From contig CBDCWP010000009.1 of assembly GCA_965223505.1 (NCBI GenBank), positions 13,233 to 77,232 on the forward strand: 64,000 bases of DNA. The letters are read 5' to 3'. The notes under the pieces were generated by a model. The model saw nothing but the letters and a program-made list of their open reading frames with translations, ran no database searches and was not told where the DNA came from. This DNA comes from Planctomycetota bacterium (GTDB lineage: Bacteria > Planctomycetota > PLA2 > JAEUHO01). Both the position numbers and the translations under genes were made by a program. Every line of letters starts with the position of its first letter. The first letter of the stretch is position 1. Shown piece by piece: positions 42,844-59,095 of this stretch.

Positions 42844-45800
42844 CTAGTCGCGACAGTCGAGCCAGACGTTCTTGTCGTGGGCGCAGTCATCGAGCTCCGC
42901 CCAGATCAGCAGGTCTTGTGGCACACCCGTCACGTCGTGCCAGCAGTCGCACTCGAAATCGATGCGAACCCTCGCGCGCCAATGGTCGCCGCTGACGCGC
43001 CAGATCTTGGCAACCTTCAGGAACCCGTCGCGCTTGCCGTCGTCCCAGTGGTCGCCGTCGAACTCGACGCGGATATCCGCCAGGACCTTCGAGCCGTCCT
43101 TCGCCTTCACACGGAAGGTGTGGTCGTCTCGATCACCAATCCAGAAGTCGATGACGCAGAGCTCACGCATCTCCGTGCTCTCACACGGCTCGCACCAGCG
43201 CCAGGACTCCCAGCTCCAGGTGTCGACGACGAGGAAGCTCGCGTCGTACTTACAGTCGTTCCAATCGTCGCGCACTTGCCGCAGCCACCAGTCCTTGTCC
43301 TTCGACAAGTCGCACTCGGGCATCTCAGGACAGCCATCGGTCCAGTCGAACATGGCGCCCGGCCGGAGGTGCTCGCAGCGGAAGATCGCGCACCCTTCCT
43401 TCTCACATCCGTTGATTTCGACAGCGACACGGCGCTCGCGGTCGCCGAATCGCCCCTTGTAGAACCAGTCCTTCTGGGCGATCAGCTTGAGCGTGACGGT
43501 CGCGATGCCGTTGCGCACCACGACGTTCTCGACGATCAACACGCCGTCGTGCCCGACCTGCCGGCCCGGGAACGCACCCTTCCACTCGACCCAGACACTG
43601 TCGAGCTCGTCGGACCACGGCGAGCAGCCGTCGCGGAAGTCCGCGCCCAGCTGGAAGCAGTCTTCGTCGCCCACCCAGATCTTGGTTTCGAGCGTGACCT
43701 CGTGCAGGTCGCCCTCGCAGCAGGGGTTGTTCGGGCACTTCTCGCAGTAGCAATAGGTCGCCCAGAGCGTCTCACACGGCTCGAGACAGAGCGTGGTGAT
43801 CTCACTCTCACCCTCGCAAGGCTCCCAGTCCTTCAGTTGCGGTTGATCCTTGGAGACGCAGACGTCGTAGCAGCCGGGCGGGAGGCTCCAGCAGCAAACG
43901 CCCCACCTGTCGGTGAAGCCGGTCGAGATGACCTTGTCCGATCCCTTGCGCTTGATGTCGACCTTGATCCACTCGAGGTTCGTGTCGACGCCCTCATCGA
44001 ACTTGTCGTCACACTTGCCCTTCGGCTGGCCGAAGACGCGGACACAGATCCACTGCTCACACTTGCAGTAGCGGAAATCCTTGTCGCGGCAGCTGACGCC
44101 GCACTCCACCGTCGGCGTGTAGACCTTCGGGTCCTGCAAGATGTAGCTCGCGTTGCCCGGACCCTGGAGGATCCGGACCTCGACCTCGCCGGTCGGAACG
44201 TTCTCGAAGCAGTAGAGACCATCCGCATCGGTCGTCGTGGTGTCCCGGTAGCCGACGTCCAGCGCGAAGCCGCCGATCCCGATGATCTCGACGACCACGC
44301 CCTCGAGGCAGAGGTCCCCCTCCTTCATCCAGAACATGCCGTCGCAATCGCAATCGAGCCAGACCTTGCCGCACACCTCCTGGCAGCAGTACCCGAACTC
44401 GACGCGCTCTTCCTCGCCGCAATCGATCGTGACACACTGCTTGCGCTCACCCTTGCACAGGCACCAATACTGGCGCAGCTCGAAGGTGTCCTCGATCTCG
44501 ACGCAGTAGTCACCCGGCAAGAGCCCCTTGACCTTGACGCAACCGAAGGCGTCGGTCTCGAGATCCTGGATGAAGGTGCCGTTCGCGTCCGTCAGGACGA
44601 GACGAGCCTTGTTGATCGGAATGTCGCCGTCGTCGAACCGACAGTCGCACTCATCGACCGGCTCCTTCCAGACCTGGATCTTGATCGAGCCCAGCGGGCA
44701 GACCAGGAACTCGACGCGCGCCGCGCCCCCGTCGGGACAGACGACCGTCTTGCTCCGATCGGAGCACAGGCGCTTGTCCGCGGGTACGGAGCTCTCGTCG
44801 ATGGTCACCGTGTAGGTGCCGGGAACGAGGTTCAGGAACTCAACGCAGCCGTCGGCGTCGGTCGTGCCCATCCGGTCGCCGGGGCTGAGCATGATCTTCA
44901 CGCCGGGAACGCCCGGCTCGCCGGGCTCACAGACGCCGTCGCAGTCCGCGTCGCAGCAGACCTTGACCTTGATGTCGCAGGTCGGCGGCGGCTCGCAGCA
45001 GTAGCCGAAGTTGTTGTCGACCGACATGTCGACCTTGCCCAGTTCGACGAGATGCGAGCTCGGGAACGGACCGGCGGGATCACAGAAGACCTCGCCCGGA
45101 GGCGGCAACGGATCCGTCAGGATCGTGACGGTGTAGTTGCCGGGCGGCAGGTCGTAGTCGTCGTCGCTGAAGCAGTAGAACCCGTTGGCGTCCGTCACCT
45201 CGGTGAACCCGCCGGGATTGAGCTGGACCACCGCACCCGGAAGCGGGCTTTGCGGCGGGTTGGGCGGAACGCCGTTGAGCGGTCCCGGACCGCCGACCGA
45301 GGTCACCGCCGGGCCGCAGTACACCGTGCCGCAGATCGACACCGGACAGGTGAGCTGGAAGAAGCAATCCTGTTGCTCTCCGCCTGGCACCACCTCGATC
45401 ATGCAGCAGCCGTCGAGCGGGTTCAGGAACGAGGAGCCCGGCGCGAGCGACGCCGGGTCGATACACAGGTTGTACTCGCCGAACGGGAGTTGGTTGCCGT
45501 TCTCGTCGTCGAGGCAGATCTCGCCGTTCAGGTCCGTCGAGACCTGGCGGATCGTCTGGTTCGTGCCCTTGTCGATCACGTCGACCAGGATGCCGGCGCA
45601 GGGCACGTCGACGCCCTCGTCGAACTCGCTGTTCCCCGGCTTCGGACGGCTGCGCTCGCACCAGATCTTGATGAAGACTTTGGGCGTGTCGCAGTCGTAG
45701 ATGAAGTCGATGCCCGTGACCTCGGTCATCTGACCGGTCGGCGGCACCGTGACCTCGCGCGGGTTGTCGTTGTTCGGGCAGTTGGAGAGCACGATCGTCG

Positions 45801-48024
45801 TGTTCGGCGGCGGCGTCACGGAGACCGTGACGTCGTAGGTCTCGCCGGGTGTGAGCGGCTCGTCGGCGCTCGATATGAACTCCCAGCACGTCGTGAAGTC
45901 GCCGATGGTCACGGGGTACGTCGCTTCGTAGCTCGACGCGTTCCCGTCGATCGGCAGATCGCCGCCGGAGATCGTGACCGTGACGAGCGTGCCCAACGGC
46001 AAGTCCTCGTCACCGATGCAGTCGCCGTCGGTGTCGCAGACCAAGCACCCGCTGAGCTTGATCGGGCACTCGTAGATGAACGTGCAGGGCGGCAGCTTCG
46101 GCGGCAGCGACTCGGGTGTGTTGATCACGCACGGGTTCTCGTTGCCGGGACAGTCTTCCGGCGATTTGAGCGCCGGCATCGTCACGGTGGACGACGGCAC
46201 GCCGTCGACCGTGACGGTGACGTTGTAGACGGCATTGGGCTCGAGCTCGCCGCTGGTGAACTCGTAGCAGTCCGTGTCGGGGTTCAGCGTAAGCTCCACG
46301 CCGCCGCCCAGACCCGGCCCCGTCGCGGTCACGACGATGGTCTTGCCGGGGAAGACGACGTGCAGCGGTCGGTCGATCTCGCAGTCGCCGTCGTCGTCGC
46401 AGCCCAGGCAGGCCTCGATCGTCGTGTCGCAATCCTCCGGCGTCGTGCCGAAGTCTTCGCTCATTTTCAGGAAGATGAAGTTGCCCGCATCGACTTCGGC
46501 GAAGCGCACCGACCACAGGTTGTTCGCGCCGGGGTTCGCCTTGAAGTGATCCTTGTCGAGCGGAATGTTCAGGTACTGATCGTCGCCGTCCGTGGTCCAT
46601 GCGTCGGCGCCGGCGCCGTTGTCGAGCACCTGGATCGCCAGGACCTGGTCCTGCCTGTCGTTGTTCACCGAAGCGTGAATCGGCTGGAGTCCGTTCGTCG
46701 GTTGCAGACGCATGCCGGTCGCGAGGGGATGCAGCGGCTCGGACGAGTAGGCGACGCCGTTGAAGCCAGCAGCGAAGGGATCCGACACCGGGGTCGGTGT
46801 GATCGCCCAACGCACCGCGTCGCCGATGCGAAACGCCGTGTTGTCTCGGAGGTCCGTGACCGCCTCGCCGCCCATCCCGAACGCGAGCTGCGAGTGGCAG
46901 CCGCTTTCCAGGTTCGGGTCGGGATTGGGGTCGTTCGCCACACCGCCGTGGTCGGCCGGGATCCCGAAGTTCTCGAAGTCACAGTCGGGATCGTTCGCCT
47001 CGTTCTCGTCCCTCAAGATCGGAGGGTTCCAGTCCGCGTCCGACTCGCCGAAGATGAACGTGTCGGGGCAGATGACGCGCGTGTTGTGGAAGAAGAAGTC
47101 GAAGGTGCCGTCGTACTGGTTGATGCCACCGGAGGGCGGCGGAAGCGGTTCGCCGGGCATGGGATCCATGGTCTGGCCCTGCGGAACCTGGCCCTGGTTG
47201 ATGAAGGGATAGCGCTGGTCGATGATGCCGCCGGAGAAGCCGAGGATGCTCCCACCCGGAATGAGATACGTACTGTTGAACGCCACCTTGTGTCCGCAGC
47301 GTTCCGTGCCCTGAAGCAGGCCGCCCGGGAACGCGGGCAAGAGCGAGATGACCATGACGAACTTGTACGACGACGCGTCGTCCGGACGCGCATTACCGCC
47401 GAACTGGTTGTCGACGAGCGTCTCGAAGGCGGCCGGTTCCATGTCGAAGAACGCCGCCCACGCGTTGTCGGGCGAGGCGTCGGACGACGTCTCGAGCAGA
47501 CGCGTGATGCGGTTCGGCAGCGCGTCGTACTGGGGCGTTTCCGTACACCACTCGGTGACCGCCGCCGCCACGTCCATCCCGTCCTGCTTGTCCAAGAACA
47601 GGTCGAACTGCACGCGCGGGTGCTGCAGCAGGACACTGTCCGGAGCGAACTGATCCCACTTGCCTGTCACGTTTGGATCGAACAGCGCGATCTGCATCGG
47701 CGTGTCGTCGGCGCCCGGACGCTCGAAGTCGAGCTTGATGATCGTTCGAACCGGCTGGTCGACGAGCATGCCCCCCGCGTTCTTGCACTGCTCGCCCGTC
47801 GTGTTGTTCCCAAGCCCCGAAAGCACGAGGAACTTCGCGCTGTTCTCGTCCTTGTCGGGCAAAGCCTGGAAGGAGGCGTCGGCGATGACGGTGTCGGTCG
47901 ATGTCTCGAAGTTGTTGTTGTTGTCGACACGATCCGGATCGGGATCCGCCGCATCGGCAGGCAGCCCTCCCAGCACGATCGGAAGCGCGATCGCCGCGAC
48001 GACAATGAATAGACGATTGACCAT
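42844..48024 (-). CDS. Large secreted cysteine-rich protein with SdrD-B/Cna-B-like repeats (about 1,726 aa)
   Basis: GGAGGAG RBS; signal peptide MVNRLFIVVAAIALP...ADA; repeats such as CDADCDGVCEPGEPGVPGVKIML...TTDADGCVEFLNLVPGTYTV. Confidence 0.85.
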   Translation of the reverse strand: MVNRLFIVVAAIALPIVLGGLPADAADPDPDRVDNNNNFETSTDTVIADASFQALPDKDENSAKFLVLSGLGNNTTGEQCKNAGGMLVDQPVRTIIKLDFERPGADDTPMQIALFDPNVTGKWDQFAPDSVLLQHPRVQFDLFLDKQDGMDVAAAVTEWCTETPQYDALPNRITRLLETSSDASPDNAWAAFFDMEPAAFETLVDNQFGGNARPDDASSYKFVMVISLLPAFPGGLLQGTERCGHKVAFNSTYLIPGGSILGFSGGIIDQRYPFINQGQVPQGQTMDPMPGEPLPPPSGGINQYDGTFDFFFHNTRVICPDTFIFGESDADWNPPILRDENEANDPDCDFENFGIPADHGGVANDPNPDPNLESGCHSQLAFGMGGEAVTDLRDNTAFRIGDAVRWAITPTPVSDPFAAGFNGVAYSSEPLHPLATGMRLQPTNGLQPIHASVNNDRQDQVLAIQVLDNGAGADAWTTDGDDQYLNIPLDKDHFKANPGANNLWSVRFAEVDAGNFIFLKMSEDFGTTPEDCDTTIEACLGCDDDGDCEIDRPLHVVFPGKTIVVTATGPGLGGGVELTLNPDTDCYEFTSGELEPNAVYNVTVTVDGVPSSTVTMPALKSPEDCPGNENPCVINTPESLPPKLPPCTFIYECPIKLSGCLVCDTDGDCIGDEDLPLGTLVTVTISGGDLPIDGNASSYEATYPVTIGDFTTCWEFISSADEPLTPGETYDVTVSVTPPPNTTIVLSNCPNNDNPREVTVPPTGQMTEVTGIDFIYDCDTPKVFIKIWCERSRPKPGNSEFDEGVDVPCAGILVDVIDKGTNQTIRQVSTDLNGEICLDDENGNQLPFGEYNLCIDPASLAPGSSFLNPLDGCCMIEVVPGGEQQDCFFQLTCPVSICGTVYCGPAVTSVGGPGPLNGVPPNPPQSPLPGAVVQLNPGGFTEVTDANGFYCFSDDDYDLPPGNYTVTILTDPLPPPGEVFCDPAGPFPSSHLVELGKVDMSVDNNFGYCCEPPPTCDIKVKVCCDADCDGVCEPGEPGVPGVKIMLSPGDRMGTTDADGCVEFLNLVPGTYTVTIDESSVPADKRLCSDRSKTVVCPDGGAARVEFLVCPLGSIKIQVWKEPVDECDCRFDDGDIPINKARLVLTDANGTFIQDLETDAFGCVKVKGLLPGDYCVEIEDTFELRQYWCLCKGERKQCVTIDCGEEERVEFGYCCQEVCGKVWLDCDCDGMFWMKEGDLCLEGVVVEIIGIGGFALDVGYRDTTTTDADGLYCFENVPTGEVEVRILQGPGNASYILQDPKVYTPTVECGVSCRDKDFRYCKCEQWICVRVFGQPKGKCDDKFDEGVDTNLEWIKVDIKRKGSDKVISTGFTDRWGVCCWSLPPGCYDVCVSKDQPQLKDWEPCEGESEITTLCLEPCETLWATYCYCEKCPNNPCCEGDLHEVTLETKIWVGDEDCFQLGADFRDGCSPWSDELDSVWVEWKGAFPGRQVGHDGVLIVENVVVRNGIATVTLKLIAQKDWFYKGRFGDRERRVAVEINGCEKEGCAIFRCEHLRPGAMFDWTDGCPEMPECDLSKDKDWWLRQVRDDWNDCKYDASFLVVDTWSWESWRWCEPCESTEMRELCVIDFWIGDRDDHTFRVKAKDGSKVLADIRVEFDGDHWDDGKRDGFLKVAKIWRVSGDHWRARVRIDFECDCWHDVTGVPQDLLIWAELDDCAHDKNVWLDCRD

Positions 48025-48375
48025 CTGCGTTCTCCTCCGCATCCCCTGCGGCAGCTCGCCGGCCCGAATGAGGACCTCTGTCTCGCGCATTCGATGCACC
48101 TGGGATGCCGAACGACCTTCGCTTCCGGCTGCGCACACAAGTACCTGCCTGATCGAAGCTTGTGATCCCCCGGTGATCACCAAGCCGAACACCGTGTCCA
48201 AAAAGAACAGCGCGCGTTCAAGTTCTGCGACGGCCCCCATCCGGCAGGGCGCTGCGGGCAATACTGCGGAAAACCTGACAAGGAAGCCAGCGTTTTCGAT
48301 GAATCGCGATTGGGCGCCTCGGGACGGGACGCCGGGCGCCGCGCTCGCCGCGGGGCCGCGGCCCGACACAGCTGA

Positions 48376-48411
48376 AATTGCAAGAAGGGCGGGCTCGAAA
48401 GCCCGCCCTTC
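48376..48411 (-). terminator. Intrinsic terminator of the Cys-rich lipoprotein gene
   Basis: Minus strand GAAGGGCGGGCT-TTCG-AGCCCGCCCTTC followed by TTGCAATT. Confidence 0.75.
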
Positions 48412-48437
48412 CGCAGATGTCTCGGACGTGCTGCGCG

Positions 48438-49580
48438 CTACTCGTGCAGCGTGGTGCTCTCGGTCTCGACCGCGACCTCGGTGCCGTCTTCCATCTGGAC
48501 GGAGGCGGAGACCTGGACGAGCTTCGTCGGGGGCGCGGAGAGCACCTTCGCGTGGAACTCCATTGCGCGCTCCTGACCGACACCGAGCGGAAACACCGAG
48601 CTCGTCGCGCTCTGTCCACCGCCGTCGAACGTCACACCCTCGCCGCGTCCGGAAACGAACTCGAGATGCTCGGGCAGCGAGATCGCGACCTTCAGGTTGG
48701 GCATGGCTTCACTCGCCGCGTCGCTCAAGATCACCATCTTGTAGACGACGGTGTCGCCGGGACGGAAAATGCCTTCTTCCGAACCGTCCGCCGCCTTGTC
48801 GTCCATGCGGACCTCGAGGGCGGGAAGGGCTTCTTCGACCTCGACGGGAACCTCGCAGTCTTCGTTGCGACGCCACTCCCAGCGTCCGGGTGTCGTGCAG
48901 ACCTCCCGGGTGCGGGTCTCGTACTTCGCCGGCACCATGATGGTCTGGCAGAAACCCTCCTTGATCAGGTAGCGCTCCTCGACGCACTTGTAGCGAGCCG
49001 GCGAGTACTCGACGCAGAGCTTCGACGGCGCGACGCACACGCGCTCCTTGCGAGTGCCCCAGACCGCCGGCTTCACCTTCTTGACGTAGCACTCACACTG
49101 CGACTCGCCCTCCCCTGCGACGGTGGGCTTGCAGCACGTCTTGCACCACATCTCCTGCTCCGGCTTGACAAGGACGTCCTTGTCCTTGGTCGTCCACAGG
49201 CCCGGCTTGCACACCTCGCGAACGTTCGCGGGCGCCACACACACGAGCTTCGGGCGGTACCCGTACTCCGGCGGCACCCACACCTTCTTGCACTGCTTCG
49301 GGCAGACGCAAACGCGCTCGGTGACGGTCTTCGTGACGGGCGGGATCCAGTAGCGGCACCATGCCTCGCCGACGTTGGCCTCCGGCGGCTTGTCGGCGGG
49401 CCCGTCTGCGCACGGATCGACCGGCGCGCAGGGATCGCACGGGTCTTCGCAGGGATCCTCGCAGCACGCGACGGCCGAAATCGGATTTCGGCTGCCCGCG
49501 CAGGCTCCCAGCAGAAGCACGATCAGACAAAGGCTGAACAGGGTCAGCCAGGCTCGGTTACGCGAAGTCGTCGACGCCAT
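48438..49580 (-). CDS. Cysteine-rich lipoprotein: DPC head, PAxY repeats, C-terminal DUF11/OmcB-like domain
   Basis: Lipobox LLGAC; CCEDPCEDPCDPCAP; 25 Cys counted; GDTVVYKMVI...LPEHLEFVS...LGVGQERAMEF...ETESTTL. Confidence 0.75.
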   Translation of the reverse strand: MASTTSRNRAWLTLFSLCLIVLLLGACAGSRNPISAVACCEDPCEDPCDPCAPVDPCADGPADKPPEANVGEAWCRYWIPPVTKTVTERVCVCPKQCKKVWVPPEYGYRPKLVCVAPANVREVCKPGLWTTKDKDVLVKPEQEMWCKTCCKPTVAGEGESQCECYVKKVKPAVWGTRKERVCVAPSKLCVEYSPARYKCVEERYLIKEGFCQTIMVPAKYETRTREVCTTPGRWEWRRNEDCEVPVEVEEALPALEVRMDDKAADGSEEGIFRPGDTVVYKMVILSDAASEAMPNLKVAISLPEHLEFVSGRGEGVTFDGGGQSATSSVFPLGVGQERAMEFHAKVLSAPPTKLVQVSASVQMEDGTEVAVETESTTLHE

Positions 49581-49812
49581 TCCGGCAATCCTCCCTGGAG
49601 CGCTGTGCAGGCGGTCGCGGAGCGAATCCACGACGCCGAACGGCCCTCCCTCAGACCGGTCTGCGATGCCCGCGGAGCGTACCACCGGATCGCCGCGATC
49701 CGATGGCCCGAAAGCCGCCGGATGAAGCCGCCGGGCCCGTGCAACCGCCTTCCAAGCGGTCCGTGGGCCGCCGGCGTCACGGCACTGTCACCGGCGCGGT
49801 CGACCCGGCGAT

Positions 49813-50649
49813 CTAGTTCCCGGCTTTGGCGAGAAACGCGTCGCGCAACGCCTTCGCTTCGTCATGCAGACTCGTGTTCGTGAACGCGCCGACCAGTCGC
49901 TCGTAGGCGCCGCGCGCCCCGCGACGATCCCCGGACGCGAACAGGCGGTCCGCGGCTCGGGCGCGAGCCTCCATCGTCTCGCGCGCGAGGGTGGTCACCT
50001 TCGCCGCAGCGGCCTCCTCCTCCGCCGTTACGTCCTCGGCTTTCATCGCGCGTTCGCTCAGCAGGAGCGCGTGACCCAGGCGCCCGTGCCAGACGTCTTC
50101 GCGAATCGTCTTGAAGGACGCCGGCACCTTGCCGAGCTGCTGAAGCCGGTAGCGGCGCAGCTCTTGCTCGATGATGGGCACCGACATCTTGTTGCTCGAC
50201 TTGACGCGGCCGTCGGTCCCGATGACGTAGTCGACCGGCCGGCGACCGACGCCGTATTTGGCAGCCTGCGAGCCGTCGCGATCGCAAGCGACGGGAAAGT
50301 CGTACCGCGGGTTCAACGTGCGCAGCTTCCCGCGAACGACGTCGGGTCGGTGCTCGTGCACGACGGTGAGCACCTGCAGCCCGCTCGTTCCGTAGCGGTC
50401 GTAGAGGTCCTGCACCTCCTTGAGCTGCCGGTGACAGATCGGGCAGTCCTTGAGCCAGAACTTCACCCACACCACCTTGCCGCGGTGCGCGGAGAGCGTC
50501 GTCCCTTTCTCGAAGCCGTTGAACCCTTCACGAAACGACATGTCGGGCGCCATCTGGCCGTCCAGGTCGCGGCCGGCGGCGAACACGTCGTCTCCGGAAA
50601 ATGCGGTGACGACCAGCGCGAGTAGGACGGGTCCGAAGATGTTGCGCAT
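49813..50649 (-). CDS. Exported TlpA-like thioredoxin-fold protein with helical C-terminal extension
   Basis: Signal peptide; APD, RGKVVWVKFWLKDCPIC, YGV..RP..YVIGTDGRV. Confidence 0.8.
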   Translation of the reverse strand: MRNIFGPVLLALVVTAFSGDDVFAAGRDLDGQMAPDMSFREGFNGFEKGTTLSAHRGKVVWVKFWLKDCPICHRQLKEVQDLYDRYGTSGLQVLTVVHEHRPDVVRGKLRTLNPRYDFPVACDRDGSQAAKYGVGRRPVDYVIGTDGRVKSSNKMSVPIIEQELRRYRLQQLGKVPASFKTIREDVWHGRLGHALLLSERAMKAEDVTAEEEAAAAKVTTLARETMEARARAADRLFASGDRRGARGAYERLVGAFTNTSLHDEAKALRDAFLAKAGN

Positions 50650-50737
50650 GTGCCTGCTCTCACACGGGACGGCCGACTCTCCGTGATTCTACGGGTCGAA
50701 GGGCCGCCGGGCGACGATCAGGTTTGCGGCGTTGCGC

Positions 50738-52216
50738 TCAGCTCTTGGCGGTTCGCGCACCCCAACGCGTGTGGCGCCACACGTCGGGATGGAAGAGCGC
50801 CAGAATCGCCATGATCTCGAGCCGCCCGAACCACATCCCGATCGCAAGCAGCAGCTTGATGCCGTCGGAAAAGCCGTCGAAGCTGTCCATGGGTCCGACC
50901 GGGCCGAATCCGGGACCGATATTGCCCAAGCACGCGAGACTCGCGCTCATCCCGGTCACCATGTCGGCCTCGCCCGACGCCACGACGATGGTCCCGAGGA
51001 CCAGATACGCCAGCAGGTAGAGCACGACCAGCGTGATGACCGCGCGCAGCACACCGCTCTTGATCGGACTCGTCTTGTAGCGGATCGGTATGACGGCGCG
51101 CGGGTGGAGGACCTGCGTCGCCTCGCGCCGGATGAACTTGAAGAGCAGCAGGTAGCGAATCATCTTCGGTCCGCCGCACGCGGAGCCGGCGCACCCACCA
51201 AGCAGCATGGCCACGACGAGCAACATGCGCGCACCGTCGCCCCACTGCGGTGATCGCACGTAGTCGACGCTCGCATAGCCCGTGGACGAAGCGAGGCTCG
51301 TCACCTGGAACGCGGCGTCGCGGATCGCACCCATCCCGAAGTCGCCTCCGGATATCAGCATCGCGACCGCGAGCGTCGCGATCAGGCACATGAAGAAGTA
51401 CGCGAGGAACTCGCCGTCGCGGAGCAGGGAGCCGGGCTTGCCCGATACCGCGCGCCATTGAAGCGGATAGCTCGTCCCGGAGATGACCATGAAGACGACG
51501 AAGATCCACTCAGCCGTCGGATTCGCGTACCCCATGATGGACTCGCCGTTCGGCGAGAAGCCGCCGGCAGAGAGCGTCGTCAGCGCGTGCACCGCAGCGT
51601 CGTACCAATCGAACCCCGCCCACAACAGACACCCGGTGAGGATCGCGGTCAGACCGATGTAGAGCAGCCACAAGCGCGTGGCGGCGGAGCGGACCTGCGG
51701 GCTGATCCCTTCGGACGTCGCCGTAGACGCCTCGGCGAAGAACAGCTGACGTCCGGCAATGCCGAGTCGCGGCAGCACGACGACGAACAGCGCGATGACG
51801 CCGATGCCGCCGAACCACTGCGTCATTGCGCGCCAGAGAAAGAACGCCCGGTTGTAGTTCGGCGAGCTGAAGTCGAGCACCGTCGCGCCCGTGGTGGTCA
51901 AGCCGGACATGGCCTCGAAGAACGCGTTGACGGGGGGCATCCCGTGAAACAGGTACGGCACCCCGGCGAACGCGGCGACGACCAGCCACGTTCCGCTCAC
52001 GACCGCCATCGCCTCGCCGCGATGGAGGAAGTCGGTCTTCTGGAATCCGCGCGCCATCACGCTGCCGATCGCAGCGGCCGCGACGAGCGAGATGGCGAAG
52101 TAGCCCGCCACCTGGTATTCCCCGTCGATCATCGCCATGAAAATCGGCGCCAGGAAGGCGATCGAGAACAGCCGCAGCAGGTTGCCGATCACCCCGAGGA
52201 CGAGCGAGACGCGCAT
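50738..52216 (-). CDS. trkH: Trk potassium uptake membrane protein
   Basis: FEAMSGLTTTGAT, SAGGFS, STGY, GGCAGSACGGPK, LGNIGPG, GRLE. Confidence 0.95.
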   Translation of the reverse strand: MRVSLVLGVIGNLLRLFSIAFLAPIFMAMIDGEYQVAGYFAISLVAAAAIGSVMARGFQKTDFLHRGEAMAVVSGTWLVVAAFAGVPYLFHGMPPVNAFFEAMSGLTTTGATVLDFSSPNYNRAFFLWRAMTQWFGGIGVIALFVVVLPRLGIAGRQLFFAEASTATSEGISPQVRSAATRLWLLYIGLTAILTGCLLWAGFDWYDAAVHALTTLSAGGFSPNGESIMGYANPTAEWIFVVFMVISGTSYPLQWRAVSGKPGSLLRDGEFLAYFFMCLIATLAVAMLISGGDFGMGAIRDAAFQVTSLASSTGYASVDYVRSPQWGDGARMLLVVAMLLGGCAGSACGGPKMIRYLLLFKFIRREATQVLHPRAVIPIRYKTSPIKSGVLRAVITLVVLYLLAYLVLGTIVVASGEADMVTGMSASLACLGNIGPGFGPVGPMDSFDGFSDGIKLLLAIGMWFGRLEIMAILALFHPDVWRHTRWGARTAKS

Positions 52217-54585: not shown

Positions 54586-56658
54586 CTACTCGGTCCGTTC
54601 CGCCCGCGCGAGGCAACGCCGGGCGACGGCGGCGACGTTTTCGGCCGTGAAGCCGTACTCTTCCATCAGGCGGTCTCCCGGCGCGGACGCGCCGAAGCGA
54701 TCGACCGTGACGAGGTCGCCGCTCGGCCCGATCCAGCGGTGCCAACCCAAGGACGCGCCGGCTTCGATGCCGATCCGCACGTCGCAGCCGCCGAAGAGCG
54801 CTTCCCGATCGTCGGCGTCCATCTCGTCCAGGCGCTCCCAGCACGGCATGGAGACGACGCGCGCCGTCACGCCCTCGTCCTGGAGCAAGCGCGCGGCGTC
54901 GAGCGCGAGCGCGACCTCCGAGCCGGTGGCCAACAACACGACGTCCGGGTTCACCGCGCCCTCGCGCAGGACGTACGCACCGCGTGCCGTGCCCGAGGCC
55001 GGCGCCAGCCGGTCGCGATCGAGAATCGGCAGGCCCTGGCGCGTGAGGATCAGCGCCGTCGGCCCGTTCGACTCGAGCGCGATACGCCATGCCTCGGCGG
55101 TTTCGTTGGCGTCCGCGGGCCGCACCACGTTCAAACCGGGGATGGCGCGCAGCGCCGCGAGGTGCTCGATCGGCTGATGCGTCGGGCCGTCCTCGCCGAC
55201 CCCCAGCGAATCGTGCGTGAAGACGTAGACGACGGGCAGCTTCATGAGCGCGGCCAGGCGGATCGCGGCGCGCATGTAGTCGCTGAACACCAGGAAGGTG
55301 CCGCCGTACGGTCGGATCCCTCCGTGCAGCGCCATGCCGTTCATGACCGCGCCCATCGCGTGCTCGCGTACGCCGAAGTGCAAGGTGCGCCCTTCGTAGG
55401 CGCCCGCGCGAATGTCGGTCGTGCCGGGCAGCGTCGTGTTGTTCGAGCCGGCCAGATCCGACGAGCCGCCGATGAGCAGGGGAATGTGCGCGCCGAGCGA
55501 CGCCAAGACCTTGCCGGACGCCTTGCGCGTCGCCAGCTTCGCGCCGGCGTCGAACGTCGGCAGCGCCGAAGACCATTCGGCGGGCAGCTCGCCGGCCCAC
55601 GCCGACTCGAGCGCGGCCGCGCGTTCGGGATGGGCGCTGCGGTAGGCGTCCATGCGCGCTTCCCAGCGCTCGACCTCGGCGGCGCCGCGCGCGCCCACCT
55701 CGCGCATGTGCGTGGCCACGTCGTCGGGCACCAGGAACTGCGCGTCCTCGGGCCAACCGAGGGCCTGCTTGGTCAAGCGGACCTCGTCCTCGCCCAGCGG
55801 CGCGCCGTGCGCGGCGGAGCTGTCCTGCTTGTTGGGGCTGCCGTGTCCGATGTGGGTGCGGCAGCAGATGAGCGTCGGCTTCGACGTCTCGGCGCGCGCG
55901 GCATCGCACGCCTGCACGTAGGCGTCGGTGCCCTCGTCGACGTGCACCGAGAGAACGTTCCAGCCGTACGCGGCGAAGCGAGCCGCCACGTCTTCGCTGA
56001 ACGAGAGGTCGGTCGTGCCGTCGATCGTGATGCGGTTGTCGTCCCAGAACACGCACAGCTTGTGAAGGCCCAAATGGCCGGCGAGGCTCGCCGCCTCCGC
56101 GCACACGCCTTCCATCAGATCGCCGTCGCTCGCGAGCACCCACGTGCGGTGATCCACTACTTCGTGCTCGTCCGTGTTGAAACGCGCTGCCAGGAGGCGC
56201 TCGGCGAGCGCCATGCCGACGCCGTTTCCGAAGCCCTGGCCCAGGGGACCGGTCGTCGTCTCGACGCCCGGCACCTCGCGGTACTCGGGGTGCCCGGCGG
56301 CGGGGCTGCCCCACTGCCGGAAGTTCTTGATCGCGTCCAGCGACAGGTCGTAGCCGGTCAGGTGCAGATAGGCGTACTGCAGCATGCTCGCGTGTCCGCA
56401 CGAGAGCACGAAGCGGTCGCGATCCGCCCAGGTCGGATGGGCGCTGCTGTACTTCATGACGCGGGTCCAGAGCGCGTAGCCCAGCGGCGCCTGGCCCATG
56501 GGCGGCCCCGGATGCCCGGCGCGGGCGGCCTGAACGGCGTCCATGGCGAGCGTTCGCACCGTGTTGATGGTGAGCGCTTCGAGGCTGGTCCCGGCGGGCT
56601 GCGGATCCGACACGGTCACCTCGTCTCCGGTGTGTGAGCTCGCAACGGAATCCGACAT
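54586..56658 (-). CDS. tkt: Transketolase
   Basis: GHPG, DRDRFVLSCGH, TTGPLGQG, DGDLMEG, FGVREH, THDSLGVGEDGPTHQP. Confidence 0.97.
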   Translation of the reverse strand: MSDSVASSHTGDEVTVSDPQPAGTSLEALTINTVRTLAMDAVQAARAGHPGPPMGQAPLGYALWTRVMKYSSAHPTWADRDRFVLSCGHASMLQYAYLHLTGYDLSLDAIKNFRQWGSPAAGHPEYREVPGVETTTGPLGQGFGNGVGMALAERLLAARFNTDEHEVVDHRTWVLASDGDLMEGVCAEAASLAGHLGLHKLCVFWDDNRITIDGTTDLSFSEDVAARFAAYGWNVLSVHVDEGTDAYVQACDAARAETSKPTLICCRTHIGHGSPNKQDSSAAHGAPLGEDEVRLTKQALGWPEDAQFLVPDDVATHMREVGARGAAEVERWEARMDAYRSAHPERAAALESAWAGELPAEWSSALPTFDAGAKLATRKASGKVLASLGAHIPLLIGGSSDLAGSNNTTLPGTTDIRAGAYEGRTLHFGVREHAMGAVMNGMALHGGIRPYGGTFLVFSDYMRAAIRLAALMKLPVVYVFTHDSLGVGEDGPTHQPIEHLAALRAIPGLNVVRPADANETAEAWRIALESNGPTALILTRQGLPILDRDRLAPASGTARGAYVLREGAVNPDVVLLATGSEVALALDAARLLQDEGVTARVVSMPCWERLDEMDADDREALFGGCDVRIGIEAGASLGWHRWIGPSGDLVTVDRFGASAPGDRLMEEYGFTAENVAAVARRCLARAERTE

Positions 56659-56743
56659 GGGCCGCGCCCTCCCTTCGGCGGTTCTGGTTGTGGCGGGATT
56701 CTAGCCACCCAGGCCCCCGCTCCCGACCGGAGTTCGCAGTGGA

Positions 56744-58114
56744 TTACTTCCCCCCGCCGGTCAGCACGGGCGGCGTCATCGGAATGAAGGGCTTGCGCGT
56801 GCTGCGCTTCAGGAAGAGGAGCGCGAAGCACGTTTGCGAGGTGGCGAGCTCGGTCGCGTCGGCCGGCCGATCTTTCTTGTCCGCTTCCTTCCATCCACCC
56901 TCGGCTTCCTGAGCGCTGAGCAGGTACTCCGCGCCCTCCCGGTACCAATCGTGCTTGCCGATCCAGCGCACACCGGTCTTCGCGCCGACGCGCTCGAGGC
57001 CGTAGAGGTAGTAGTAGTGCCACATCTGCGGCGTGCCCGACGTGTCCGGGTTGTCTTTGACCGTGAACACGTCCGCCAGCCACGCCAAGCCGTCGAGAAT
57101 GCCCCGGTCCATGCGCTTGCGCAGCGCCGGATCCAGCTTCTTCAGGAGCCAGAGCCGCTCCTTCGTCAGCGCCAGGCACGTGACGCCCGCCGCCGTCATC
57201 GAGCCGGTCGGGTACATCTGCTGGCCGGGGATGTAGGTCCAGCCTCGCATCTGCGTCTCGCCGACCTCCTTGAAGCGCGACGCCGGGTCGTCCCCGGGTT
57301 CCCAGGCTTCGTTCTCGATGAAGATCGGGACGTCGAGCCCGTCGTCTTCCTGGGACGTCAGGACGTACTCGGCGGCCTTCTGCCAGGTTTCGGGGGGCGC
57401 CACGATGCCGCAGCTCGCGGCCGCCTCGAGCGCCAGCAACGCGTATTGCACGTTCGAGAGGTCGGTCTCGCCCTCCTCGGCCGCGATGGGGTTGCCCGGG
57501 TACCGCCAGCCGCCCGAGGGGTGCTGATTGCGAACGATGAGGCTCACCAGCTCCTTGATCCACTTCCGGACCCACGACGGGTACTTGCACTTGGCGGGCT
57601 TCGGAGGGACGGCCTTGCCGTAGCGGTCCCGCTTGAGCGGCTTCGGCTTCTCGATCCCCCGGTAGAGAGCGTCGAGCGCCATGATCAGCGTCGCGGCGGT
57701 GTAGATCGTGACCTGGTTGTTGCCCTTCAGATTCCATGAACCGTTGCCGCCGGCGTAGTGGAATTGGCAGAACTTCATGCACTTCTTGACGCTGTCGTGG
57801 TCCGGCTCTACGCCGCAGTGCGCCAGCGTGAGCATGACGAGCGCATTCAGCCCCACCTCCATGATGTTGTACTGGCGCGGCAGGAGGTCTTCGCTGAAGC
57901 CGGGGTAGCTGCCGTTCTTCTTCTGGGTGCCCTGCAACCACGCGACGCCGCGGTCGATCGCCTTGTTGACGCGTTCTTGGAACGCTGCCAGGTCCTTCGC
58001 GGCCTTGGCCTTCGCGGCCTCGCGATCGACGGGCTTGGCGTCGTCGGCGACGGCAGTCGAGAGACAGCAGGGCAGGGCGATCGAGAGCAACAGCATCAGG
58101 CGAACGACACGCAT
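56744..58114 (-). CDS. Secreted prenyltransferase/squalene-oxidase-repeat (alpha/alpha barrel) protein
   Basis: Signal peptide; QW-like motifs QKKNGSY, QHPSGGW, QEAEGGW; YYLYGLERVG...DWY; TCFALLFL. Confidence 0.8.
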   Translation of the reverse strand: MRVVRLMLLLSIALPCCLSTAVADDAKPVDREAAKAKAAKDLAAFQERVNKAIDRGVAWLQGTQKKNGSYPGFSEDLLPRQYNIMEVGLNALVMLTLAHCGVEPDHDSVKKCMKFCQFHYAGGNGSWNLKGNNQVTIYTAATLIMALDALYRGIEKPKPLKRDRYGKAVPPKPAKCKYPSWVRKWIKELVSLIVRNQHPSGGWRYPGNPIAAEEGETDLSNVQYALLALEAAASCGIVAPPETWQKAAEYVLTSQEDDGLDVPIFIENEAWEPGDDPASRFKEVGETQMRGWTYIPGQQMYPTGSMTAAGVTCLALTKERLWLLKKLDPALRKRMDRGILDGLAWLADVFTVKDNPDTSGTPQMWHYYYLYGLERVGAKTGVRWIGKHDWYREGAEYLLSAQEAEGGWKEADKKDRPADATELATSQTCFALLFLKRSTRKPFIPMTPPVLTGGGK

Positions 58115-58175
58115 GGCGACACCCTACCGCCGTCGTCCGTGCACGCTCAAGCGTGAAGGGCGCCGGGACACGAAA

Positions 58176-58213
58176 CGAAAAAACGGCCCCGCGTCGGAGG
58201 ACGCGGGGCCGTT
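58176..58213 (-). terminator. Intrinsic terminator of the second Cys-rich lipoprotein gene
   Basis: AACGGCCCCGCGTC-4 nt-GACGCGGGGCCGTT perfect stem followed by a T run on the minus strand. Confidence 0.85.
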
Positions 58214-58285
58214 GATCTCTGCTTCGTGCGAAGCGAACCATTCCGCTTCGCGCGAGGCGAAGCCGGAAGTACTGGGTCGGAGGGA

Positions 58286-59095
58286 CTACTCGTCGCCGGA
58301 CTCTTCGGCCGGAGCGACCTCGACCTCGCCGCCTTCACCGGCGTCGTCCGGGACTTCGCAGTCCTTGTTGCGGCGCCACTCCCAGCGGCAGGGCTCGACC
58401 TGGCGCTTGCGCACGACGGTCTTGTACTTGGCCGGGACCTGCTCGGTCTCGTAGTAGCCGGCCTTCGTGCAGACCTGCTCTTCGACCGTCTTGAACTTCG
58501 CGGGGATCGTCTCGGTCTCGGTGCGAGCCGGCGTCACCATCACGCGTTTGGTCACGGTCTTGTACTTGGCCGGAATCTCGACCAGCATCCAGCAGTCACC
58601 CTGCTTCTGGCCCTCTTCGAGCATCTTCGGCGTGCAGTCGACCTTGCGCCACTCGGTGCGCGCCGGGCAGCAGCAAACCTGCTCTTCCTGATTCTCGTAG
58701 ACGGCGGGAATCGTGGTGCACTTCTGCTGCGCCGGCTGGCAGCACACCTGACGCGTGCGCGTCTCGTACTGCGGCGGAACCCAGGTCTTCTTGCAGCCCG
58801 CGGGCTCACATATGACCTGCTCTTCGTACTCCTCGAACTTGGCGGGGATGAAGATGCGACACCAGGCCTCACCGGCCTTGGCCTCTTCCGGGATCCCGTC
58901 GGGACGCCGGCTCGAGCACGGATCGCAGTCATCGCAGGGATCGCACGGGTCGCAGTCGGTCCCGCACGGATCGATGTCGATGTCGCACAGATCAATGTCA
59001 CACGGATCGAAATCACACGGGTCCCAACCGCAGCATCCCGCCGCGAGGGTCCCACAGACCGCTACGACGAGCATGGTCTTCAAAGCGTTGGCCAT
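58286..59095 (-). CDS. Cysteine-rich lipoprotein with DPC head and six 23-aa PAxY repeats; paralog of 48438..49580
   Basis: AAGGAGG RBS; LAAGCC lipobox; 26 Cys in 269 aa; shares GEAWCR and RWEWRRNxDCEVP with the paralog. Confidence 0.8.
   Translation of the reverse strand: MANALKTMLVVAVCGTLAAGCCGWDPCDFDPCDIDLCDIDIDPCGTDCDPCDPCDDCDPCSSRRPDGIPEEAKAGEAWCRIFIPAKFEEYEEQVICEPAGCKKTWVPPQYETRTRQVCCQPAQQKCTTIPAVYENQEEQVCCCPARTEWRKVDCTPKMLEEGQKQGDCWMLVEIPAKYKTVTKRVMVTPARTETETIPAKFKTVEEQVCTKAGYYETEQVPAKYKTVVRKRQVEPCRWEWRRNKDCEVPDDAGEGGEVEVAPAEESGDE

Follow-up and report, generated by a model that had tools for sequence, protein, structure and literature searches.

The locus and the parts of the encoded lipoprotein

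The window studied here is a stretch of 64,000 nucleotides (nt) of Planctomycetota DNA (assembly GCA_965223505.1, contig CBDCWP010000009.1, positions 13,233 to 77,232). On its minus strand, at 48438..49580, it carries a gene for a cysteine-rich lipoprotein. Three elements are newly combined in it: a tether of lipoprotein type, a repeat stalk that has not been described before, and a terminal DUF11 domain of the kind that closes OmcB-type proteins. The original prediction saw in it an OmcA-like head joined to an OmcB/DUF11-like end, that is, features of two chlamydial proteins in one chain. The elements it had pointed out (lipobox, Cys-rich head, PAxY repeats and a Cys-free end with ETESTTLHE) are all present where it had placed them. 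The features of the gene are as follows.

48438..49580, minus strand: whole gene, cysteine-rich lipoprotein of 380 amino acids (aa) plus stop codon (open reading frame and translation)
49590..49595, minus strand: Shine-Dalgarno-like GGGAGG, 9 nt before the ATG at 49580 (read from the sequence)
49500..49580, minus strand: type II signal peptide and lipobox LLLGA/C27, residues 1-27 (sequence)
49395..49499, minus strand: Cys/Pro/Asp/Glu-rich head or tether, residues 28-62, six Cys beyond the lipid Cys (composition)
48846..49394, minus strand: stalk with a GEAWCR motif, six PAxY beta-hairpin repeats and a closing GRWEWRRNxDCEVP motif, 17 Cys (periodicity and model)
48441..48845, minus strand: Cys-free DUF11/CLIPPER-type immunoglobulin (Ig)-like domain, residues 246-380, LPALEVRMDD...ETESTTLHE (profiles, fold and alignment)

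The longest minus-strand open reading frame (ORF), 48438..49685, starts at a GTG at 49685, whereas the ATG at 49580 gives the 380-aa protein. The ATG was preferred because the GGGAGG box lies 9 nt upstream of it and because the orthologues begin there too. The resulting protein contains 25 Cys (about 6.6%) and divides into four parts, residues 1-27, 28-62, 63-245 and 246-380. Its first part begins with the positively charged MASTTSRNRAW and continues as a hydrophobic run up to LLLGAC; residues 7-26 are helical in the full-length AlphaFold model, whose predicted local distance difference test (pLDDT) is 84.5. The lipid Cys27 is kept in 54 of 55 aligned orthologues. These features strongly support the prediction that the protein is exported and lipidated at Cys27.

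Searches of Pfam, NCBIfam and PDB sequences with the window protein returned nothing useful, the sole faint Pfam match being MG2 (E 0.069), and the family profile had no match at E <= 1 among PDB sequences. A homodimer prediction with two copies of residues 63-380, run without controls, scored 0.00 against a mark of 0.42, which speaks neither for nor against a dimer. The architecture is nevertheless no accident of one sequence, since about 70 near-full-length relatives at 40-58% identity share its length and its order of parts.

The stalk is built of 23-residue repeats

The stalk (residues 63-245, 183 aa) contains 17 Cys, the last of which is C242. It opens with a conserved PPEA..GEAWCR motif, continues with six 23-residue units that each start P[AP]x[YW], at residues 80, 103, 126, 171, 194 and 217, and closes with GRWEWRRNEDCEVP. 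A Cys-rich insert at about residues 146-164 splits the repeats into three plus three. Over residues 76-245 the 23-residue periodicity gave z = 4.5 against 200 shuffles. The paralogue encoded in the window shows the same period (z = 7.1), and so do two distant relatives, at z = 8.3 and z = 15.0. When 55 sequences were aligned, conservation started only at RPPEAKPGEAWC. Six stalk Cys (C75, C114, C150, C164, C182 and C242) are kept in at least 52 of the 55 orthologues; most likely, these nearly invariant residues pair as three structural disulfides.

Modelled alone (residues 60-246, 75 sequences), the stalk reached a pLDDT of 92.9. The model shows 14 strands of about 12 and about 7 residues in alternation, arranged as two sets of seven that flank the Cys-rich insert. 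An elongated ribbon of six 23-residue beta-hairpin repeats is thus the strongly supported predicted structure. Comparison of this model with 48,161 solved chains by VIA gave eight chains at Z >= 2, with a best Z of 2.6, and the best Foldseek match had an E of 7.2e-3 at a template modelling (TM) score of 0.12. No Pfam or NCBIfam model covered the stalk in the protein, the orthologues or the relatives that were scanned.

Relatives of the stalk were found outside the orthologous family. With the window protein as query, phmmer reached repeat proteins ending in PG_binding_1 at E values down to about 1e-29 (P0135). Such stalk relatives measure 370-670 aa, contain few Cys, have a lipobox or signal peptide and carry PG_binding_1 at the C-terminus, PF01471 being present in 5 of the 10 scanned; some also gave a weak match, below the cut-off, to an Lpp-like coiled coil. 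The lipoproteins P0092, P0117 and P0135 share with the window protein the period, the GE.W/Y.C..., PAxYxT... and closing EWR..LC motifs, and the lipobox or signal peptide. They differ from it in being Cys-poor (5-10 Cys in 450-548 aa) and in ending in PF01471, whereas the window protein ends in DUF11; PF01471 matched neither the window protein nor any of the 55 orthologues. Overall, the 23-residue PAxY hairpin repeat, with P0092, P0098, P0117 and P0135 as relatives, is a candidate for a new domain family. For the nearest clusters, the Atlas gave Pseudomonadota as the commonest taxon (score 0.84), which is to be taken as a lead only on where the PG_binding_1 relatives come from.

A further Atlas lead, at 0.80, pointed to the YTV cell-wall proteins (PF07639), which are likewise cysteine-rich planctomycete envelope proteins with short P.Y.T-like repeats. 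It was rejected: hhalign of the stalk profile against the YTV-like ORF of the genome gave a probability of 0.2%. The window protein differs from the YTV proteins in having no Pfam match to them, and the only PF07639 match of the genome lies on contig C26.

The terminal domain belongs to the DUF11 superfamily

Residues 246-380 form a domain of 135 aa devoid of Cys, as compared to 17 Cys in the 183 residues before it. The original prediction had expected this region to match DUF11 or OmcB in Pfam. With the window protein itself this was not so, PF01345 giving no match at E <= 10, and the four genome matches to PF01345 at E <= 0.01 all lie outside this gene. The orthologues did bear the expectation out, since 31 of the 55 matched PF01345 at E <= 0.01 (best E 7.3e-8), as did 19 of 24 further proteins linked by phmmer to residues ~240-380. 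When the window protein was compared by BLASTP with two proteins of several DUF11 repeats, E values of 2e-8 and 6e-9 were obtained over an LP..LEFVSG.G core, and hhalign aligned the domain of its own family with generic DUF11 repeats at 97.3% probability (E 2.5e-11). On contig C38, a paralogous domain 41% identical to it overlaps a 32.5-bit match to PF01345 (cut-off 24.6).

The domain was modelled with pLDDT > 90 over most of its length. Its best solved fold was 9IFR (Foldseek E 2.3e-6, TM 0.73 on the target), which also came first by VIA with Z 13.7 and a root-mean-square deviation of 3.1 over 120 residues, many other Ig-like folds lying within 2 Z of it. As reported in the parts of the preprint that describe it, 9IFR is the first DUF11 crystal structure and DUF11 is renamed CLIPPER; the same parts describe an isopeptide bond for DUF11 and note some DUF11 domains without the triad (bioRxiv 10.1101/2025.04.25.650565). 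In our alignment, generic and internal DUF11 repeats keep the isopeptide K, D (before LP) and N, and these K/D/N positions are not kept in the window domain, as judged from the alignment and not from a structure.

The PF01345 matches of orthologues and relatives, the BLASTP matches and the 9IFR fold therefore identify the end domain as a divergent member of the DUF11 superfamily, as had been proposed. There is strong support for one Cys-free Ig-like domain of DUF11/CLIPPER type here, belonging to a subtype without the isopeptide triad. It resembles DUF11/CLIPPER domains in its CnaA-like Ig beta-sandwich, which was the top structural match of two programs, and in the signature near LP..LEFVSG.G. 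It differs in standing as one C-terminal copy and not as tandem stalk repeats, and in lacking both Cys and the Lys/Asp/Asn isopeptide positions.

The Cys-rich head resembles OmcA in composition and position

Right after the lipobox comes CCEDPCEDPCDPCAPVDPC, which together with its flanks makes up residues 28-62. With the lipid Cys included, Cys, Pro and acidic residues (Asp/Glu) account for 7 each of the 36 residues 27-62. Among the 55 orthologues the head is hypervariable: it measures 19-54 residues, cannot be aligned and has no conserved sequence. At least three Cys are found in 50 of the 55 heads, mostly with C-x2-C or C-x3-C spacing, and the lipid Cys alone remains in the other 5. The head was modelled as disordered (pLDDT < 50). 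It is thus strongly supported that Cys27 is followed by a tether that is disordered, evolves fast and abounds in Cys, Pro and acidic residues.

The original prediction had derived this head from chlamydial OmcA. The OmcA profile PF03503 (Chlam_OMP3) gave no match on the window protein at E <= 10 and none in the 55 orthologues at E <= 0.01. In the genome scan it did not match this gene, and two sub-threshold matches sit on other contigs; similar ones were found in 6 of 14 unrelated control genomes. None of 29 genomes of the family matched at E <= 0.01, but the profile was silent in the controls too. A search with the head alone (residues 20-66) against proteins of 30-208 aa yielded five word-sharing candidates and none at E <= 10. 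With no profile match, a hypervariable head and an empty head-only search, derivation from OmcA found no support.

This result must be read with the nature of OmcA in mind. In the passages of PMC1403754 that deal with it, OmcA is reported as a protein of 88 aa with about 15% Cys whose matches are confined to Cys-rich proteins. BLASTP is said to miss it even when Chlamydiaceae are compared with Protochlamydia, where it was annotated for being Cys-rich and encoded upstream of a large Cys-rich protein (PMC1403754). Because OmcA escapes BLASTP even within the chlamydiae (PMC1403754), an undetected similarity leaves a common origin possible. By that positional criterion, which is weak, the window gene would also qualify. 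The likenesses are a type II signal peptide (with a predicted lipid Cys here) followed directly by a Cys-rich stretch, and a gene upstream of that for a large Cys-rich protein. The differences are that the window protein has no profile or word-based similarity to OmcA, that its head is of low complexity and hypervariable, and that it counts 380 aa with ~6.6% Cys as compared to 88 aa and 15% (PMC1403754). Composition and position are thus what the head appears to have in common with OmcA, and at the sequence level there is no evidence of homology.

Relation of the end domain to the last domains of OmcB-type proteins

Planctomycetal OmcB-type proteins, found by a PF03504 (Chlam_OMP6) scan of 201 Planctomycetota genomes, served as comparators and stand in for chlamydial OmcB throughout this section. 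At E <= 0.001, PF03504 matched in 17 of the 201 genomes and in 0 of the 5 from the family of the window. Two of the OmcB-type ORFs (478 and 472 aa) carry Chlam_OMP6 at 46.3 and 45.2 bits (cut-off 34.1) together with DUF11 repeats.

L038:400-1833 (minus strand), L039:1420-2835 (plus strand) and L041-L054: OmcB-type proteins, in other Planctomycetota families

Eleven OmcB-type ORFs end in ...EEEST[HQ]VY or a close variant, and G[FQI][PA]A[LI]L[LI]E[VM]ID opens the last domain in each of these eleven. The corresponding motifs of the window subtype are [GA]LPAL[EQ]VEM.D at the start and ETESTTL at the end. One OmcB-type protein, L040, begins with a lipobox-like ATSC.

PF03504 itself matched neither the window protein nor the 55 orthologues, and the genome scan added a single sub-threshold match, located on another contig. 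Compared pairwise by BLASTP with a planctomycetal OmcB-type protein, the window protein reached a best E of 4.0, so that profiles alone reveal the relation. Residues 246-380, used as query in a word-indexed search, brought up just 10 close relatives and no OmcB, but this search was too insensitive to count as a test. With hhalign, the full family profile had the last domain as its sole match in OmcB-type proteins (E 4.9e-4, probability 32%). After trimming, the own-family domain aligned with OmcB-type last domains at 80.9% (E 1.2e-5) and with the internal DUF11 repeats of OmcB-type proteins at 55% (E 1.2e-4), while other carriers of the subtype matched OmcB-type last domains at 97.5% (E 8.9e-12).

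A DUF11 phylogeny had also been proposed as a check. In a maximum-likelihood tree of 58 domains and 136 columns, own-family domains, other carriers and OmcB-type last domains stood together against generic and internal repeats with support 92/97. Because the sequences had been picked by their start motif, the tree was rebuilt without the motif columns (columns 1-11 and 136-168, plus one long row, removed). The three groups then no longer formed one side of a branch (2 changes). Forcing them together cost 2.6 log-likelihood units and was not rejected (approximately unbiased (AU) test, p 0.223). The phylogeny therefore recovers the grouping with all columns and not without those of the motif.

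Overall, the OmcB resemblance of the end domain holds for placement, start and end motifs and profile match, and its clade is lost with the motif columns; a specific kinship of the terminal subtype with OmcB-type last domains is no more than plausible. The window protein resembles OmcB in being an envelope protein of the Planctomycetes-Verrucomicrobia-Chlamydiae (PVC) group with a DUF11-superfamily last domain at its extreme C-terminus. With the planctomycetal comparators it further shares the first-strand motif, the E.EST ending and the absent isopeptide triad. Unlike OmcB, it has no Chlam_OMP6 domain and one DUF11 domain in place of several; its Cys lie outside the DUF11 part, and it has a lipobox and the 23-residue repeat stalk. 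The view of two proteins joined in one chain thus keeps its DUF11 end and loses its OmcA head, and residues 63-245 are a repeat module related to neither. A Cys-free OmcB homologue of Rhodopirellula baltica with C-terminal similarity was already reported in 2006, in a passage of PMC1403754. Supplementary tables of PMC2811131 list PVC orthologues of outer membrane proteins of chlamydiae and may bear on the extent to which the OmcB link is on record. A small Cys-rich lipoprotein ORF was sought in the short flanks of 14 OmcB-type loci and gave three matches, regarded as probably spurious: those at L045 and L047 are short ORFs within the gene span on the opposite strand, and that at L048 is a 90-aa ORF.

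Distribution of the family and of its parts

A word-indexed search with the window protein gave 168 relatives at E <= 1e-3 among 2667 candidates, the few named ones being proteins of Planctomycetota metagenome-assembled genomes. An exhaustive phmmer search of 1.84 billion representatives gave 770 matches at E <= 1e-3, 190 at E <= 1e-10 and 21 at E <= 1e-30; many of the matches listed fall on the stalk. In the 201 Planctomycetota genomes, matches at E <= 1e-10 were present in the genome of the window and in all 4 others of its GTDB family, in 0 of 4 sister-family genomes, and in 1 of 192 other Planctomycetota, there on the stalk only. Among the genomes sampled, the full family is found only in the window's own uncultured GTDB family of Planctomycetota.

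Two paralogues in the same genome have the stalk without the end domain.

58286..59095, minus strand: paralogue P0089, 269 aa, with a lipobox, a DPC-repeat head and the same stalk, without DUF11 (sequence search)
G000:C12:8300-8923: second stalk-only lipoprotein paralogue, L034 (genome match)

In both, a Cys-rich head comes with a lipobox and the tail is acidic or proline-rich; P0089 counts 26 Cys in its 269 aa. The spacing between P0089 and the studied gene is kept in a related contig (L015, L024). P0089 has as its head an extreme DPC repeat, CCGWDPCDFDPCDIDLCDIDIDPCGTDCDPCDPCDDCDPC, which is closer to the studied head than are the orthologous heads of other species; there are hints that head composition co-varies within a genome. 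Another natural variant is seen in L019 (CAWDIE010000009.1), where the orthologue is a 285-aa ORF that matches residues 9-245 only, has no DUF11 domain and is not followed by the giant gene described below. L011 and L014 keep the full lipoprotein and also have no giant gene.

The terminal DUF11 subtype also occurs in other proteins. It ends three other proteins of the genome, at 41-49% identity over residues 240/250-378, and in all three just 2 residues separate the end of the match from the stop codon, the ending being ...ETESTT[LV]K[NR].

C30:174098-174493, C42:132093-132512 and C38:174356-174745: carriers of the terminal subtype, L035-L037 (same-genome matches)

At least 13 metagenomic carriers also end in this subtype behind unrelated N-terminal parts (CARDB, DUF7507 or DUF11). 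Single-stretch phmmer matches that reach query residue 378-380 end at most 13 residues from the end of the protein. The position of the subtype at the extreme C-terminus of its carriers is thus strongly supported, and it looks like a lineage-specific C-terminal module. Many metagenomic proteins of ~275 aa combine a signal peptide and a Cys-bearing CARDB-like domain with this terminal subtype.

The gene lies between a redoxin gene and a giant cysteine-rich protein gene

The following features flank the lipoprotein gene.

49813..50649, minus strand: secreted thioredoxin-fold protein with CPIC, ResA/TlpA/DsbE-like, upstream neighbour (Pfam matches)
42844..48042, minus strand: giant secreted cysteine-rich protein, downstream neighbour, likely start MRRRTQ at 48042 (Pfam and Cys counts)
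48384..48411, minus strand: 12-base-pair perfect G+C stem with a UUCG loop and no T tract, 27 nt after the stop codon

The redoxin matches AhpC-TSA (7.1e-16), Redoxin (6.4e-11) and, below the family cut-off, ResA (1.7e-13). It lies directly upstream of the orthologue in all 16 related loci with upstream DNA. The giant gene has a longest ORF of 1841 aa encoding 94 Cys, 86 of them after residue 640. Its product is laid out as a Cys-poor N-terminal part of ~600 aa, a series of CxxCDxDGDC-like repeats of the SdrD_B/CarboxypepD_reg type (SdrD_B 1.7e-26, CarboxypepD_reg 1.5e-21) and a Cys/Trp-rich C-terminal region. Its match to the anammox Kustd1514 S-layer family, at 20 bits, is far below the cut-off. 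The giant gene follows in 12 of 16 related loci with at least 1 kb of downstream DNA.

The conserved order is paralogue, unknown gene, transketolase, (M48 peptidase), TrkA, TrkH, redoxin, lipoprotein and giant gene, and the redoxin-lipoprotein pair persists where TrkAH is missing. A 541-aa ORF without a Pfam match, at 56616-58241 on the minus strand, adjoins the stalk-only paralogue in L008, L014, L022, L023, L024 and L025. The neighbours scanned include no metal-handling gene.

The hairpin between the lipoprotein and giant genes may be a terminator or an RNA-stability element. The RNA of 48375-48440 (minus strand) folds at -33.5 kcal/mol (z -4.5), a stability that none of 200 shuffles equalled. 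A consensus terminator scan did not list the hairpin at 48384..48411. Over 47800-50900 the consensus scan gave no promoter and one terminator-like site, inside a coding region.

A proposed role as stalk lipoprotein of a cysteine-rich envelope

We propose, at a probability of roughly 0.55, that the protein is a lipid-anchored, disulfide-stapled stalk lipoprotein in the redox-managed, cysteine-rich envelope of one uncultured Planctomycetota family. According to this proposal, the ribbon would act as a rigid spacer that keeps the terminal Ig domain at a set distance from the membrane. Cys of the tether, and perhaps surface Cys of the stalk, would pair with those of other Cys-rich envelope proteins in intermolecular disulfides, the giant 94-Cys neighbour being the first candidate. 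The adjacent secreted TlpA/ResA-like redoxin would set or edit these disulfides. Such an arrangement would be analogous to the chlamydial OmcA/OmcB layer, in which a Cys-rich lipoprotein gene also neighbours that of a large Cys-rich protein and a DUF11 module takes part, without being a fusion of both proteins and without necessarily being the ancestor of that layer.

Several observations weigh against this proposal. Its disulfides, its partner and its cellular location rest on sequence, models and gene order, and the window protein itself is below every Pfam threshold. Because 5 of 55 orthologues have no tether Cys beyond the lipid Cys, cross-linking through the tether is not universal. The redoxin and the lipoprotein occur without a downstream giant gene in L011, L014 and L019, and perhaps in L023, whose locus covers only 1.4 kb of downstream DNA; since three or four related genomes thus lack it downstream, the giant protein is no obligatory partner. 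The strong hairpin, together with the 232-nt and ~390-nt spacers, suggests three separate transcripts and not one operon. Finally, the classical role of TlpA/ResA-type redoxins is that of reductants when cytochromes or copper centres are assembled, and the neighbour would fit other roles as well.

Of the other explanations, one puts the stalk at the centre and one the head. The stalk might span the periplasm to a wall polymer, the DUF11 domain replacing a peptidoglycan-binding end and the Cys only stabilising the fold. Relatives with a lipobox or signal peptide, a C-terminal PG_binding_1 and sometimes the sub-threshold Lpp-like coiled coil speak for this, as do the six nearly invariant Cys inside the stalk and the dispensability of the tether Cys in 5 of 55 orthologues. 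We nevertheless hold such a wall-spanning role to be unlikely, though possible: this DUF11 subtype has no known ligand, the two genome paralogues carry the stalk without any end domain, and the conserved neighbourhood of a redoxin gene and a giant Cys-rich one would be left unexplained. Use of the head as a periplasmic metal buffer, for copper for example, kept reduced by the TlpA-like neighbour, appears highly improbable. C-x2-C and C-x3-C spacing does dominate the heads, and TlpA-type proteins reduce the copper-binding cysteines of Sco and CoxB. However, the head shows no conserved metal-site geometry, its length and its number of Cys vary freely, 5 of 55 orthologues have lost it, and none of the scanned neighbours is a metal-handling gene.

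The remaining explanations turn on the end domain. The gene could have arisen by a true evolutionary join of OmcA and OmcB, or represent an ancestor in which the two were not yet split, and so inform on the origin of the chlamydial cysteine-rich complex. In this case the grouping with OmcB-type last domains over all columns (92/97), the common G[LF]PAL.[VI]E[MV].D start, the terminal E.EST and the lost K/D/N triad would find their reason. Both phyla moreover belong to the PVC group, and a lipobox with a Cys-rich stretch upstream of a large Cys-rich protein is what identified OmcA in Protochlamydia, as a passage of PMC1403754 has it. Against this, PF03503 and PF03504 are unmatched in the protein, in the 55 orthologues and on this gene in the genome scan. 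PF03503 is also absent from the 29 family genomes (E <= 0.01), where it was silent in controls too. The head-only search was empty and the head is not conserved among orthologues, while half of the chain is absent from OmcA and OmcB. The grouping, for its part, is gone without the motif columns (AU p 0.223, hence not rejected either), and the end domain is at least as near to generic DUF11 (2.5e-11) as to OmcB-type last domains (1.2e-5). OmcB-type proteins, finally, occur in 17 of 201 genomes, in other families, with 0 of 5 in this one. A join of the two proteins is therefore improbable.

Another explanation would take the terminal subtype without the isopeptide triad as one ancient PVC module, common to OmcB-type proteins and a set of envelope proteins of this family, and the lipoprotein (as membrane anchor), its dedicated redoxin and the giant protein as the free-living counterpart of the disulfide-cross-linked chlamydial complex. 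The G[LF]PAL.[VI]E[MV].D start, the E.EST end and the constant last position would, on the same joint reading, be marks of that module; we regard this reading as rather improbable. If it were true, the stalk would stand as a novel 23-residue ribbon of beta-hairpins with no charted structure. The subtype might also be a common sorting, docking or assembly module for different secreted proteins of the lineage. It is C-terminal in four different proteins of the genome with a near-identical ETESTT[LV]xx, at least 13 other carriers have unrelated N-terminal parts, and the OmcB-type last domain is placed alike. A second sorting signal would be unexpected in a lipoprotein that is already anchored, however; no machinery or partner has been identified, and the terminal placement may merely be inherited architecture. 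Such a function thus appears distinctly improbable. Taken together, these considerations leave the disulfide-stapled stalk lipoprotein as our preferred explanation.

Meaning for the planctomycetal envelope

Cysteine-rich proteins are present in planctomycete cell-wall preparations, according to a passage of PMC8567305. The original prediction had expected the gene to bear on the origin of the chlamydial cysteine-rich layer. This link is tempered: the DUF11/OmcB-type relation to Planctomycetes is real, and was noticed in 2006 in a passage of PMC1403754, whereas the link to OmcA is not demonstrable. For the family itself, the locus offers a testable trio in conserved order, made of a redoxin, a Cys-rich lipoprotein and a giant Cys-rich protein. 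The variants L019, L011 and L014 are useful natural material on the interdependence of these parts. Beyond the family, the stalk repeat is widespread and looks like a general envelope spacer that carries either a peptidoglycan-binding or a DUF11 domain.

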